The position numbers were made by a program, and so were the translations under genes. Below the pieces are notes generated by a model. The model saw only the letters and a list, made by a program, of their open reading frames with translations, was not told the DNA's origin and made no database searches. Below, one piece after another: positions 11,634 to 18,177 of a stretch of 32,653 nt of DNA (its first letter is position 1; each line of letters opens with the position of its first letter). This DNA is from a virus (Duplodnaviria > Heunggongvirae > Uroviricota > Caudoviricetes), in the IMG/VR virus record IMGVR_UViG_2541047739_000007; one strand, written 5' to 3'.

Positions 11634-12629
11634 GTGACCGTGAGAGCACTACTGACCCCTGAAATTGCCCCGCGTATGGGGATCGTATTGTTCAGGCCAG
11701 GTTCAGAGCTGATGCCCCTGTTTATGCAGGGGCGTGTCCTGCTGGAGCCTGAGCCGGAGCGTTATTCATCTTTCGCCAGTGGTGCCGTTCCGGCGGCATC
11801 ACAACCGCTGGCGGATGATCCTGCCGTTCGGGCCGTGTTCCGCCATGAGGCAGTGATCCGTCGTGCTGGTGGCGTGGAATGTCTTGAAAGCTGGTTACTT
11901 CGTGAAAAAGGCTGCCAGTGGCCTCATTCCGGATGGCACAGCGAGAACATGACCACAATGCGACACGCTCCGGGTGCAATCCGTCTGTGCTGGCACTGCG
12001 ATAACCAGCTGCGCGATCAGTTCACGGAACGGCTGGAATCAATGGCAACGGATAACTGTGCCCGCTGGGTGTTGTCTGTTGTGCGTCGGGATCTCGGTTT
12101 TGATGACAGTCACGTTGTGACAATGCCGGAACTGTGCTGGTGGCTGATTCGTAATGACCTGGCGGATGCCTTACCGGAAAGTGCAGCCCGTAAGGCACTG
12201 AGATTACCGAAGCCTGTTGTGCCGTCTGTCACCCGGGAAAGTGACCTTGTGCCTTCGGTTCCTGCCACCAGCATCATCCAGGATAAAGCGAAAAAGGTGC
12301 TGGCGCTGAAAGTGGATCCGGAGTCGCCGGAGTCTTTTATGTTACGCCCAAAACGTCGCCGCTGGGTTAATGAAAAGTACACGCGCTGGGTTAAGACGCA
12401 GCCGTGCGCATGTTGTGGAAAGCCTGCTGATGATCCCCACCACCTGATAGGCCACGGTCAGGGGGGAATGGGTACAAAAGCGCATGACCTCTTCGTGTTG
12501 CCTTTGTGCAGAAAGCATCACGACGAGCTGCATGCGGATACCGTGGCATTTGAAGAGAAGTATGGCTCCCAGCTGGAGCTGATATTTCGTTTTATCGATC
12601 GCGCACTGGCGATTGGTGTGCTGGCCTGA
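11634..12629 (+). CDS. DUF968-like protein with C-terminal HNH-like Cys/His motif
   Basis: 331-aa ORF (GTG start); C-terminus [18 protein letters not shown]...[10 protein letters not shown]. Confidence 0.55.
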
Positions 12630-12646
12630 TTTTGTGGAGAAAGTTA

Positions 12647-13030
12647 ATGCGTGATATTCAGATGGTTCTTGAACGTTGGGGAGCGTGGGCGGCTAATAAT
12701 CATGAAGATGTGACCTGGTCGTCCATTGCCGCCGGTTTTAAGGGATTAATTCCTTCAAAAGTAAAATCTCGCCCGCAATGTTGTGACGATGACGCGATGA
12801 TCATTTGCGGGTGCATGGCCCGTCTGAAAAAGAACAACAGCGATTTACACGATTTATTAGTAGATTATTATGTATGTGGTATGACATTCATGTCACTGGC
12901 AAGTAAGCATTGCTGCTCGGATGGTTATATCGGGAAAAGGTTACAGAAGGCTGAGGGCATAATTGAAGGGATGTTAATGGCATTAGATATCCGGTTAGAT
13001 ATGGATATCGTTGCTAATAATTCTAATTGA
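12647..13030 (+). CDS. Late-gene antiterminator, Q-like
   Basis: Start [11 protein letters not shown] with GGAGA SD; Cys-rich ([12 protein letters not shown]); position between nin-type genes and the lysis cassette. Confidence 0.55.
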
Positions 13031-13049
13031 TATGCAATTGTTTACTAAA

Positions 13050-13080
13050 AGTTATTAAAAATGGGGCGTGGAAACGCCCC
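13050..13080 (-). terminator. Candidate intrinsic terminator, minus strand, downstream of the porin gene
   Basis: GGGGCGT-GGAA-ACGCCCC hairpin followed on the minus strand by AUUUUUAAU. Confidence 0.4.
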
Positions 13081-13171
13081 CAAAATAAAGGGTAATATAT
13101 AACAGAAGGTTTATATAGTAAGAAGCAAGGTAGTGCTTCTAAAGGAAGTGGCTTGAGGGCTCCACTTATAT

Positions 13172-13207
13172 GTTGCGGAGGCAAAGCCTCCCGCAACATA
13201 TCTTTTT
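13172..13207 (+). terminator. Candidate intrinsic terminator, plus strand, downstream of Q
   Basis: About 10-bp stem (GTTGCGGAGG / CCTCCCGCAAC, one bulge) with CAAAG loop, then a T5 run. Confidence 0.5.
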
Positions 13208-13218
13208 CGTAAGTCAGA

Positions 13219-14301
13219 TTAGAACTGATAAACCAGACCTACAGCGACGATGTCGTCGGTATCAATACCAGCTGTTTTGGTAAACTTACTATCGTCAATT
13301 AAGTTGATTTTGTAATCAACAAAAGTGGACATGTTTTTATTAAAGTAGTAAGTAGCACCGACATCGACATACTTGACTAAGTCTCGGTCACCATGAACAC
13401 CAAGGTCTTTACCTTTTGACTGAAGGTAAGCAACAGATGGACGCAGACCGAAGTCAAACTGATATTGTGCTACTGCTTCAAAGTTTTGTGCTTTGTTTGC
13501 AATATGGTTATTACCAAAAACGGTCATATTCTGAGTTTCAGAATATGTGGTAGCCAGATAGATATTGTTCGCATCATATTTCAGGCCTGCAGCCCATACT
13601 TCCGCATTTTTGCCGGAGGCATTGAATTTGCTCTTACCATAGGCGACCTGACCGTCAGTGCGATCTGATTTAGCATAGGTTGCACCCACGCCGAATCCTT
13701 CATACTCATAAGTAGTGGAGAAACCGAAACCATCACCATTGGCTTCAGTTACGTCAGTGCGGTCATTTTTACCCTGATACTGAGCAGCAAAGTTCAGGCC
13801 ATCGACCAGACCAAAGAAGTCGTTGTTACGATAAGTTGCAACACCAGTAGTGCGACCAGTCATGAACACATCTGTTTGGGTCCAGGTATCACCACCGAAT
13901 TCTGGCAGGACGTCAGTCCACGCACCGATGTCGTATGCTACACCGTAGTTACGGCCGTAATCGATTGAGCCGTAATCACCAAATTTCAGGCCTGCAAATG
14001 CAAGACGGGTTTTGTCTTTGGAAGAACCTTGAGATTCAGCACGGTTGCCTTTGAATTCATATTCCCACTGACCGAAACCAGTCAGTTGATCGTTGATTTG
14101 GGTTTCACCTTTGAAGCCAAGACGGGCATAAGTAGTATCACCATCATCTGCATCATTAGAGGAGAAGTAGTGCTTGGCATTAACTTTCCCGTATAGATCC
14201 AGCTTGTTACTGTCTTTATTATAAATTTCAGCTGCCTGAGCAGACATCGCCATCAGTACTGATGCAGCTACAGCAGAAATTGCCACTGTTAATTTTTTCA
14301 T
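13219..14301 (-). CDS. nmpC: OmpC/OmpF-family outer-membrane porin (prophage-borne NmpC/Lc type)
   Basis: 360 aa; signal peptide [23 protein letters not shown]; porin C-terminus ...VGLVYQF; on the opposite strand between Q and the lysis genes. Confidence 0.9.
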
Positions 14302-14728
14302 TGTACGCCCTTTTTTTTGAACTATTATTAAAAAATGATGTCACTGCGCGATAAATATTCATCTAATCAATGCGATTATTTCAAGATGTAAGTTTTAGTT
14401 TCTCATTTAATTTGTGAAGTAGATCTCTATTTTTATCTAAACCTTTTCTATCTAATCCTATTCATGGCTCTTGTTTGAACGAAAATAAATCTATTAGCTA
14501 ATTTATATTAATGGCACTTATTTATAAGCGATCTATAATTCTTTAGCTTAATTTAAACAAGCTAAAAATAACATCGGAAATTATTCATTGGTTATTTGTT
14601 GAAGTTTTCTTATGTATTTGTGGTGGTGTTTTGAACACTCGGTGGCATTCTCACAAATATCATTTAGTAGTTTACGTACGTAAAAAATTGGTTATGCTGT
14701 TAAGAGTGGTTACTTCGTCACACAGCTT

Positions 14729-14761
14729 AAACCCGCCGTCGAGCGGGTTTTTCCATTTTTT
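14729..14761 (+). terminator. Intrinsic terminator about 130 bp upstream of the holin (candidate tR')
   Basis: AAACCCGC-CGTCGA-GCGGGTTT hairpin followed by a U-rich tract. Confidence 0.55.
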
Positions 14762-14890
14762 GAGTCTCGATATTAGCTGATAACCCAATACCTGAGTTAT
14801 TCACTGACTCCGAATCTGTTACGTTTCTGCCTTTATTGCGATACGTAGTATCCCCTTAATTTACACCCGCTTTGTCTGCGAGGTGGGGTT

Positions 14891-15106
14891 ATGAAATCCA
14901 TGGATAAGTTAACAACGGGTGTCGCCTATGGCACCTCAGCAGGTAGTGCCGGATACTGGTTTTTACAGCTGCTAGATAAAGTCACGCCCTCACAGTGGGC
15001 GGCAATTGGAGTGCTGGGTAGCCTGGTATTTGGCCTGCTGACGTACCTGACAAACCTTTATTTCAAGATTAAAGAAGATAAGCGCAAGGCTGCGAGAGGT
15101 GGATAA
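14891..15106 (+). CDS. Class II holin (phage 21 S-type pinholin)
   Basis: 71 aa; two TM segments ([17 protein letters not shown]), charged C-terminus; followed by a SAR endolysin. Confidence 0.85.
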
Positions 15107-15603
15107 TGCCTCCATCATTACGAAAAGCTGTTGCTGCTGCTATTGGTGGCGGGGCTATTGCTATAGCATCTGTGTTAATCACTGGCCCAAGTGGTAACGA
15201 TGGTCTGGAAGGTGTGAGACATAATCCTTACAAAGACATAGTTGGTGTATGGACTGTATGTTACGGGCATACAGGAAAAGACATCATTCCCGGTAAAACG
15301 TATACCGAAGCAGAGTGCAAAGCCCTCCTGAATAAAGACCTTGCCACTGTCGCCAGACAAATTAACCCGTACATCAAAGTCGATATACCGGAAACAACGC
15401 GCGGCGCTCTTTACTCGTTCGTCTACAACGTGGGTGCTGGCAATTTCAGAACATCGACGCTTCTTCGCAAAATCAACCAGGGCGATATCAAAGGCGCATG
15501 TGACCAGCTACGTCGCTGGACATACGCTGGCGGTAAGCAATGGAAAGGGCTGATGACTCGCCGTGAGATTGAGCGTGAAGTCTGTTTGTGGGGGCAGCAA
15601 TGA
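15106..15603 (+). CDS. SAR endolysin (lysozyme, GH24 / T4-lysozyme-like)
   Basis: 165 aa; N-terminal signal-anchor-release helix rich in G/A ([20 protein letters not shown]); catalytic E...D...T region; start overlaps the holin stop. Confidence 0.85.
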
Positions 15604-16037
15604 GCAGGTTAACCGCGATTATCTCCGCTCTGGTTATCTGCATCATCGTCTGTCTGTCATGGGCTGTTAATCATTACCGTGATAACGCCATTACCTATAA
15701 AGAACAGCGCGATAAAGCCACGTACATCATCGCTGACATGCAGAAGCGTCAACGTGACGTAGCAGAACTCGATGCCAGATATACAAAGGAGCTTGCTGAT
15801 GCTAACGCGACTATCGAAAGTCTCCGTGCTGATGTTTCTGCTGGGCGTAAGCGCCTGCAAGTCGCCGCCACCTGTGCAAAGTCAACGACCGGAGCCAGCG
15901 GCATGGGCGATGGAGAAAGCCCAGGACTTACAGCAGATGCTGAACTCAATTATTACCGTCTCCGAAGTGGAATCGACAAGATAACCGCGCAGGTTAACTA
16001 CCTGCAGGAATACATCAGGACGCAATGCCTGAATTAA
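15600..16037 (+). CDS. Spanin, inner-membrane subunit (Rz)
   Basis: Start overlaps the endolysin stop (ATGA); N-terminal TM helix followed by coiled-coil. Confidence 0.8.
15799..15984 (+). CDS. Spanin, outer-membrane lipoprotein subunit (Rz1), embedded in the +1 frame of Rz
   Basis: [20 protein letters not shown] lipoprotein signal with lipobox Cys, proline-rich mature part; entirely within Rz. Confidence 0.7.
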
Positions 16038-16238: not shown

Positions 16239-16736
16239 ATGAAATCATTAACCCTCTTCAATCAACCAATTCGTATCGGTGAAGATGGCATGATCTGCCT
16301 CACTGATATGTGGAAAGCCAGTGGTAAAAGTGAATCTGAATCGCCTTACCACTACCTGCGAAACAAGCAGACCAAAGAGTTCTTAGCCGAGCTGGAGAAA
16401 AACCACGAATCTGTGGTTTTTACTGAGCGCGGTGTACACGGTGGAACATATGGCGGGAAGTTTGTTGCTTACGATTATGCGGCTTGGTTAAACCCCGGGT
16501 TCAAGTACGCGGCCTATAAAGTCCTCGATGACTACTTCACCGGAGAACTTCAGCATCGCAACAGCTTAAGTGCGCAGCTCAACATGAAATGTCATGAGTT
16601 TGACCAGAAGAAAGACATGGCGAGCTTCTGCGGACAAGGGCTGGCAGCATGGCGCTATACGAAGCCAGTGTTGGTCGCTGAGATTAACTCCCTGGCTAAC
16701 CAGCTGCAGATTACGATCCCCGGGCTTCCGGGATGA
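16239..16736 (+). CDS. KilA-N domain protein
   Basis: 165 aa; ...DGMICLTDMWKASGKSESESPYHYLRNKQTKEFLAELEK... matches the KilA-N pattern. Confidence 0.6.
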   Translation: MKSLTLFNQPIRIGEDGMICLTDMWKASGKSESESPYHYLRNKQTKEFLAELEKNHESVVFTERGVHGGTYGGKFVAYDYAAWLNPGFKYAAYKVLDDYFTGELQHRNSLSAQLNMKCHEFDQKKDMASFCGQGLAAWRYTKPVLVAEINSLANQLQITIPGLPG

Positions 16737-16990
16737 GTGATCGTGTTATTGAATGCGCCTCCAGAGCGGGGCGCGACTTCTCAGAGTTTATGAAAGGCGA
16801 GAAGGGCATGATGGAAGCATTGGCCTCGGTGGATGAGTTTGGCGAGCAGCTGCGCCTCAACGGCTGTGTCAATCATCACTTTGTTAGCTACATGATGCGG
16901 AACTCGATCATGCAGGCATTCATGGACATGGCAAAAGCCGAGAGGAAAGAAGAGCGCCGGCGTAAGCGAGCGGAAGCAAAAGCGAAGTAG
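16733..16990 (+). CDS. Hypothetical small protein with lysine/arginine-rich C-terminus
   Basis: 85-aa ORF overlapping the stop of the upstream gene (ATGA). Confidence 0.45.
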   Translation: MSDRVIECASRAGRDFSEFMKGEKGMMEALASVDEFGEQLRLNGCVNHHFVSYMMRNSIMQAFMDMAKAERKEERRRKRAEAKAK

Positions 16991-17475
16991 CCATTACAAA
17001 GCCTATCTACGGGTGGGCTTGATAATGGCTTATACCCTACACGGGATAACTTAACTGATATCCCTTTTAAAGGATAAAGGTATTCAAGCCTGACACATCA
17101 TGCGCTGTATCGTCGCCGTGTTCCCGTATTAACAGAGACCGTAGCCCGACGGGGAACTCCTTCTGCGCGAGTGTGCGGGAATAATCAAAAACGATGCACA
17201 CCGGGGTTACCGGGTACACATATTTCATCATGCCAGCGAGTCCGGTTCTGGCACGGAAGAAACCGGACGTTATGATTTAGTGCGGAAATATTTGTGTAGT
17301 GTTCTGAATGTTCTCAGTAAAGAGTAATGAATTATCAAAGGTATAGTAATACCTTTTGTTTTCGTGGATATTTGTAATCCATCTGAAAACCCCTGCTGTA
17401 GCAAGATTTTTCCTGTATTCGTAAAATGATAACTCTCCTGATTTGAATCCTTTTAAGGTGGCTTCTATAAGGCAT

Positions 17476-17688
17476 TTATTTTTTTGAAAATCTTACATTT
17501 ACAACCTTACCCTGTCCTTTTATTAAAACCGTATTATCGTTTTCAAGAACAAGATGAATATTCTCTGTGGCTAAATAGTAAATGTAATGTGAGACATTGT
17601 GACGTTTTAGTTCAGAATAAAACCAGTGATAGTTTAAATTATTTCGCACTTTATCGAATATTTGTTTAAAAATGGCAACCTGAGCCAT
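17476..17688 (-). CDS. Hypothetical small protein (70 aa) in AT-rich DNA, downstream partner of the RHH gene
   Basis: Start [14 protein letters not shown] with GGAAGG SD; compositionally distinct from its surroundings. Confidence 0.4.
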
Positions 17689-17745
17689 TGTAGTACCTTC
17701 CATGTGATATGAGGGGGCGTAGTCTGCACGATTATCTAGATTGCT

Positions 17746-17979
17746 TCAATCTGGTCTAACCTGTTTTCTGAGCAATTCAGTAATGTCACTCTTTTCTTTG
17801 TTTGCTTCAGGCGAAACTCTTTTTTCTGAGCACAGTCTCCGGCGGCAGGCTTCAATGACCCAGGCTGAGAAATTCCCGGACCCTTTTTGAACAAGAGCGA
17901 TGTTAATTTGTTCAATCATTTGGTTAGGAAAGCGGATGTTGCGGGTTGTTGTTCTGCGGGTTCTGTTCTTCGTTGACAT
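17746..17979 (-). CDS. Ribbon-helix-helix (Arc/MetJ/CopG-like) DNA-binding protein
   Basis: RNIRFPNQMIEQINIALVQKGSGNFSAWVIEACRRRL fits the RHH beta-strand plus two-helix pattern. Confidence 0.5.
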   Translation of the reverse strand: MSTKNRTRRTTTRNIRFPNQMIEQINIALVQKGSGNFSAWVIEACRRRLCSEKRVSPEANKEKSDITELLRKQVRPD

Positions 17980-18177
17980 GAGGTTGCCCTGTATTCAGTG
18001 TCGCTGATTTGTATTGTCTGAAGTTGTTTTTACGTTAAGTTGATGCAGATCAATTAATACGATACCTGCGTCATAATTGATTATTTGACGTGGTTTGATG
18101 GCGTAGACGCACGTTGTGATATGTAGATGATAATCATTATCACTTTACGGGTCCTTTCCGGTGATCCGACAGGTTAC

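Follow-up and report, generated by a model that had tools for sequence, protein, structure and literature searches.

The closest described counterparts of the locus reported here are lc of phage PA-2 and nmpC of the DLP12 (qsr') prophage of Escherichia coli K-12, and the locus is itself an intact copy of this classic, already known lc/nmpC cassette of lambda-like E. coli phages. In PA-2 (J02580.1, 1986), the gene for the Lc porin, also called 'protein 2', lies between a Q-type ORF and the lysis genes, in the same orientation as in our DNA, and its upstream region with an annotated CRP site, its late-promoter/terminator (PR'/tR') core and its 3' UTR are nearly identical to those described below. 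In DLP12, the genes stand in the same order as here, namely quuD, nmpC (on the opposite strand), essD, rrrD and rzpD/rzoD, but nmpC is split by an IS5 near its 3' end and the prophage is defective. According to PMC12197685 and PMC5069750, DLP12 also yields IpeX, a 167-nt RNA that is produced within the porin transcript and lowers OmpC and OmpF; these texts, together with PMC3333887, describe the repression of ompC and ompF as post-transcriptional. The essD promoter of DLP12 is reported to be controlled by a Q-type antiterminator and RpoE in work cited in PMC7918800 (its refs 27 and 28), and Q binding, a sigma-dependent pause and Q-dependent read-through have been reported there for DLP12 Q and this promoter. 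Reactivation of NmpC has been tied to beta-lactam collective resistance in a preprint (bioRxiv 10.64898/2026.08.19.745717). Stx phages such as 933W and Sakai Sp5 offer a further comparison, since they share with our locus the Q family, a homologous PR' with its first terminator, and the placement of cargo between Q and the lysis genes. Their cargo, stx, follows PR'/tR' on the late strand, and its expression on induction depends on antitermination by Q.

The DNA analysed here, the window, is a stretch of 32,653 nt from a Caudoviricetes record of IMG/VR (IMGVR_UViG_2541047739_000007), and the interval of interest, 13031–14890, runs exactly from the stop of Q to the start of S according to the ORF coordinates of the window. 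On the plus strand, Q (12647–13030) encodes an antiterminator of the QuuD/Q933 type with 127 residues when read from its ATG (the mechanically called ORF begins at a TTG at 12632). It matched Pfam Phage_antitermQ (E = 7.7e-54), shares 83% amino acid identity with the Q of a Stx2 phage and 81–84% with those across Stx phages including 933W and Sakai Sp5, and goes by the RefSeq name quuD in identical modules; the solved structure of Q21 is a distant match (E = 4e-8). At the other border, the first late gene is that of a P21-type holin S (14891–15106, plus strand; Pfam Phage_holin_2_1, E = 2e-35), with dual starts at 14891 and 14900 and an MKSM motif, and the homologous gene of phage 434B is annotated as dual-start. 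Together with the lysozyme and Rz/Rz1, the holin spans 14891–16037 (plus strand) and forms an ordinary P21-type lysis cassette. The Rz1 lipoprotein ORF (15772–15984; Pfam Rz1, E = 2.4e-20) is nested in the +1 frame of Rz.

With the requirement that a single place cover 80% or more of the Q-to-S query, the segment occurs in 36 phage records and in 2395 of the 5426 complete E. coli genomes, and one RefSeq E. coli chromosome carries it at 100% identity. Over its first 25 kb, the window aligns along 97% of the length, at 99.3% identity, with PhiR49_1, which was deposited as a complete phage genome with E. coli ECOR13 as host. In this respect the window prophage differs from the defective DLP12, and if PhiR49_1 is an isolated, propagating phage, this layout works in a viable phage. 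Our reading of the locus, which we hold with a probability of roughly 0.88, is that a self-contained, leftward lysogenic-conversion cassette (a moron) sits between Q and the phage's own late promoter, so that late transcription would start beyond the porin. The three parts of the cassette are a control region that is rich in AT and has a CRP-like site, an intact Lc/NmpC-type porin gene, and a 3' UTR of some 163 nt that is structured and ends in a Rho-independent terminator.

The porin gene occupies 13219–14301 on the minus strand and encodes a general porin of the Lc/NmpC type, a 360-residue precursor belonging to the OmpC family. It matched Pfam Porin_1 over the full length of the profile (positions 1–337 of 337; E = 1.9e-151), and its best match was the NCBIfam OmpC subfamily model 'porin OmpC' (521 bits, with a cut-off of 484); PGAP likewise labels it 'porin OmpC', and phage annotators often use OmpD. 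From residue 24 (AEIYNK) to the C-terminal Phe, the protein aligned with the mature OmpC chains of crystal structures (E = 6e-137), residue 24 pairing with residue 1 of these chains and residues 1–23 making up the signal peptide. Both the loop-3 motif PEFGG (within PEFGGDTW) and the terminal ...VYQF are present, and a C-terminal Phe is needed for outer-membrane assembly of general porins. Judging from this end-to-end alignment to solved OmpC, the protein would form a 16-stranded trimeric beta-barrel. Salmonella OmpD and E. coli OmpC are full-length homologues with the same type of signal peptide, PEFGG in loop 3 and a C-terminal Phe, but they are chromosomal, whereas the window porin is phage-borne and has an IpeX-type region in its 3' UTR. 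Expression of the phage-borne gene is not known to depend on OmpR.

At the protein level, identity is 90.7% to PA-2 Lc and the same to K-12 NmpC rejoined across the IS5, and 94–95% to the alleles of phages ev099 and PhiR70_1. All variation among the five alleles falls into five clusters (residues 181–189, 216–232, 263–267, 303–310 and 335–347), and the first 180 residues are nearly invariant; compared with Lc, the window allele is 5 residues shorter and differs in these same five clusters. Because the clusters are spaced about 40 residues apart and an indel coincides with the loop-4 insertion of OmpC, they are likely to be the surface loops L4–L8. A preliminary description of this DNA had proposed an intact Lc/NmpC-type porin antisense to the late operon. 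The identity values and the position of the gene, on the minus strand between Q and S, confirm the assignment, and a search of the ORF (13219–14301) for inactivating lesions revealed neither an internal stop nor an IS element, unlike the copy in K-12.

The same description had placed about 590 bp of very AT-rich DNA (14302–14890) upstream of the porin. This was accurate for the 359 bp next to the gene (14302–14660), which have 27.6% GC, compared with an average of 51.9% across the window (s.d. 6.7%, 359-bp windows); indeed, the lowest-GC 359-bp windows of the whole stretch fall here, with a minimum of 26.5% for the one starting at 14311. It did not hold for the remaining 230 bp (14661–14890), which have 42% GC and are best assigned, from their homologies, to the late promoter and its leader and not to the DNA upstream of the porin. 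The AT-rich part, which would serve as the minus-strand control region of the porin, is highly conserved with PA-2 and K-12 in the alignment. A scan of its minus strand for consensus sigma-70 promoters found none for the porin, and manual placement of a promoter relative to the CRP-like site gave weak candidates only. This putative site (ATTTGTGAAGTAGATCTCTAT, 14410–14430), 109–129 bp upstream of the porin ATG, was positioned by alignment from the CRP misc_binding feature of the PA-2 record J02580.1. It is identical in all three aligned sequences (window, PA-2 and K-12). Porin expression in PA-2 is reportedly under catabolite control, and the conserved CRP-like site would fit such control of Lc. 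A 15-bp tandem direct repeat (TTTTTATCTAAACCT / TTTCTATCTAATCCT) adjoins the site on its upstream side at 14430–14459; it is kept in PA-2 and K-12 and could be a binding site for a regulator. The second CRP site annotated in PA-2 maps to 14706–14726 of the window, that is, to +1 to +22 of PR'. One of its two half-sites (TCACA) is good, the other poor, and the annotated site over PR' appears doubtful; if the half-site is real, the catabolite state could modulate firing of the late promoter or loading of Q.

At the opposite end of the gene, 188 bp separate the stop of Q from that of the porin, and read on the minus strand these constitute the porin 3' UTR, which ends in a Rho-independent terminator identified by the terminator scan (minus strand; stem 13080–13063, then ATTTTT). 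An IpeX-type small-RNA region of 163 nt is predicted at about 13056–13222 on the same strand, the ends being estimates. The 3' UTR has a mean column identity of 95% to the DNA that follows nmpC in K-12 DLP12 and lc in PA-2, and folds with -53.6 kcal/mol (z = -5.9 relative to shuffled controls). On these grounds it corresponds to the IpeX regulatory RNA, of which the processing and the activity are putative here, and it is overlooked in the preliminary description. The ends and the mechanism of IpeX reportedly go back to Castillo-Keller et al. 2006 as the sole primary paper. If active, the RNA encoded in the 3' UTR is the likely effector of the loss of OmpC as a receptor.

In an Rfam scan of 12500–15300 (E ≤ 1), the minus strand of the 3' UTR had no match, there being no IpeX model, and the PR' leader had none either; the scan returned two plus-strand hits at chance level, sau-19 and Trp leader (E = 0.49 and 0.73). 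The prophage small RNA svsR (PMC12803456) turned out to be unrelated to the porin locus. The first IpeX hairpin (13168–13207) is followed by CTTTTT on the plus strand and could end rightward transcription coming from Q before it enters the porin in antisense.

The location of the late promoter determines how the cassette relates to the lytic genes. It had been suggested that Q-dependent late transcription must read antisense through the porin unless the promoter lies downstream of it, and it is the latter arrangement that the homologies favour. In a search against phage genomes, 14668–14752 was the only part of 14302–14890 common with Stx phages. This shared block is about 78% identical over 85 bp to DNA abutting Q in those phages, where it starts roughly 15 bp ahead of the Q stop codon. 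It contains a predicted PR' (14671–14698, plus strand), composed of a -35 element TTTACG (14671–14676), a 16-nt spacer and a -10 element TATGCT (14693–14698). Past it, at 14729–14755 on the plus strand, the terminator scan predicted the intrinsic terminator tR', a G+C-rich stem (14729–14750) followed by TTTTT. The PR' hexamers score 8/12, which is under the threshold of the promoter scan, so the site is absent from the scan list; the equivalent in Sakai Sp5, TTTACG-16-TATCAT, was called. In this Stx2 prophage, dRNA-seq by Sy et al. placed the start of PR' 258 nt ahead of a 3' end that was also mapped (PMC7547250). We computed the Sp5 start by counting back from the terminator, there being an offset between two versions of the Sakai record, and the -10 hexamer lies 7 nt upstream of the start so obtained. 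Transferred by homology, the window start would be near 14705, with tR' at about +25 to +50 of the late transcript.

PR' is 100% conserved in PA-2 and K-12, and the whole block from promoter to terminator is 97–99% identical among the window, PA-2 and K-12 (99% for the late-promoter core of DLP12, which also has the same 3'-UTR sequence). With the PR'/tR' homologue at 14671–14755 and the late start at about 14705, to the right of the porin, the gene would never be crossed by late transcription, and the antisense read-through earlier envisaged is not expected to arise. The block from start to terminator is conserved in phages with a Q that is 83%, 52% (Stx2_EH2246) or 44% (SfII) identical to that of the window, and the -35 region varies with the type of Q, differing from the window in Stx2_EH2246 and SfII. 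We infer that the pattern is what would be expected if an element bound specifically by each type of Q preceded a pause and terminator module common to all.

In Sp5 (excerpt L005), PR' is followed by tandem terminators at 1069–1096 and 1275–1303 of the excerpt, the first of which is homologous to tR' of the window. The published StxS precursor (258 nt) reads past the first terminator to the second, and since this RNA is seen, the first hairpin must be leaky for some transcripts. The window has neither the second terminator nor the StxS segment of Sp5. Just past the stop of Q, at 13040–13050, a string GTTTAC...TAAAA resembles the -35 element and spacer of PR' (14670–14686), 1.6 kb away; the likeness may be fortuitous, or the string may be a recombination scar dating from the event by which the cassette came to lie between Q and PR'.

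These elements can be assembled into the following scheme. In a lysogen, the cassette would be transcribed leftward from its own promoter, opposite to the lytic genes. The new porin would insert into the outer membrane, and the RNA from the 3' UTR would lower host OmpC and OmpF, with the result that permeability is altered and OmpC, the receptor of PA-2 and of PA-2-type phages, is removed; having lost OmpC, the lysogen would resist superinfection. This would be textbook lysogenic conversion, in which a prophage swaps the major porins of the host for its own, changing permeability to antibiotics and nutrients and eliminating OmpC as a phage receptor. During lytic growth, late transcription would start at PR' (~14705) and halt at tR' (14729–14750) unless Q modifies the RNA polymerase, and the Q-modified polymerase would continue past tR' into S, R and Rz. 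Upon induction, N-modified early transcription through Q would run antisense into the cassette. Unlike stx, the porin cassette lies upstream of PR' and on the opposite strand, with its own terminator and, by inference, its own promoter, which argues for a function in the lysogenic phase. A change in outer-membrane permeability or the loss of a phage receptor had already been anticipated in the preliminary description, and such conversion is documented for the cassette in PA-2 by literature cited in PMC8065619 and PMC12197685. By analogy with the intact nmpC of E. coli B, termed 'quiescent' in the title of Prilipov 1998 (as cited in PMC3333887), the window copy may show little expression in the laboratory. 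As far as can be judged from sequence, each feature tested for general porins, for the Lc/NmpC cassette, for the IpeX region and for a Q933/QuuD-type PR' is present at the locus. The value of the present analysis lies in annotation, that is, in an intact copy, a correct placement of the late promoter and a recognised IpeX region; current understanding of the element is unchanged.

Other explanations of the locus differ from ours in where the late promoter lies, in whether the cassette does anything, and in whose gene the porin is. If the late promoter were located directly after Q, Q-modified polymerase would read antisense via IpeX and the porin and, by transcriptional interference, shut the porin off during the lytic cycle. 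This is the arrangement one would draw from most lambdoid phages, lambda and the Stx phages among them, in which PR' abuts Q, and the string at 13040–13050 with its resemblance to the PR' -35 and spacer, as well as the plus-strand hairpin and CTTTTT at 13168–13207 as a possible terminator, could be read in its favour. However, the plus-strand promoter scan found no promoter-like site between Q and the porin (13031–13218), and this interval is devoid of homology to the cognate -10 element, initial transcribed region and terminator of PR', all of which are intact at 14693–14755. The hairpins within 13031–13218 are, moreover, explained by a leftward IpeX RNA, and we regard a promoter at this place as very improbable. 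That the porin is a chromosomal, ompC- or ompD-like host gene that merely happens to stand beside prophage DNA deserves practically no credence: its PGAP name, 'porin OmpC', and the NCBIfam OmpC subfamily model as its best match are what such a gene would show, but 36 deposited phage genome records, and the record of PA-2, have the porin as an internal gene of the phage, between Q and S, which refutes this reading.

A different question is whether the cassette, though intact, is a silent passenger, silenced by H-NS on its AT-rich DNA and of no effect in the lysogen. The 27.6% GC of the upstream region, in which a consensus promoter was not found, would be in line with such silence, as would the history of nmpC, which is described as quiescent in E. 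coli B and has been inactivated by insertion elements in K-12 (IS5) and in other genomes (IS1). Yet many phages and genomes share a conserved ORF, signal peptide, upstream region and 3' UTR, and what variation there is lies in five short clusters, the pattern one would expect of a cell-surface protein under selection. Furthermore, PA-2 lysogens make Lc, according to references in PMC8065619, and K-12 NmpC is functional once the IS5 has been excised, according to the preprint (bioRxiv 10.64898/2026.08.19.745717). Taken with this evidence, a silent passenger seems unlikely.

A comparable arrangement is found in Shigella phage SfII, which, like the window, has a Q of the PF06530 family, leftward cargo, the start-to-terminator block (98% identical to the window over 54 bp) and a holin, in this order, although its Q is only 44% identical to that of the window and the -35 and spacer differ. 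The SfII cargo (NC_021857.1, excerpt L006, 1082–2696) consists not of a porin but of two leftward ORFs of 194 and 340 residues, neither of which matched Pfam above the curated thresholds; they may represent another lysogeny-phase cargo, perhaps a defence system. As SfII has these two ORFs in place of the porin, the slot between Q and PR' appears to have been reused. A wider generalization, namely that in lambdoid phages with a PF06530-type Q the gap between Q and PR' is a general, insulated slot for leftward lysogeny cargo, with an AT-rich spacer that might couple the cargo to basal PR' activity, is a long shot at this stage. In phage Lambda_ev066, Q is 86% identical to that of the window, yet the PR' core is absent and the DNA downstream of Q is different (excerpt L007, 2893–3760): the place of the porin cassette is taken by a leftward gene for a lipocalin (Blc), together with a StxS-like terminator.

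The window has a second AT-rich island at 17200–17980 (~31% GC), located beyond the lysis cassette and the two ORFs next to it (16239–16990), ahead of the Nu1 terminase gene (18368). Its leftward ORFs encode a DUF3950 protein and a 75-residue DUF1398 fragment, which is probably truncated, as it matches the first 62 of 119 profile positions only. The island resembles the ybcV/ybcW region of DLP12.
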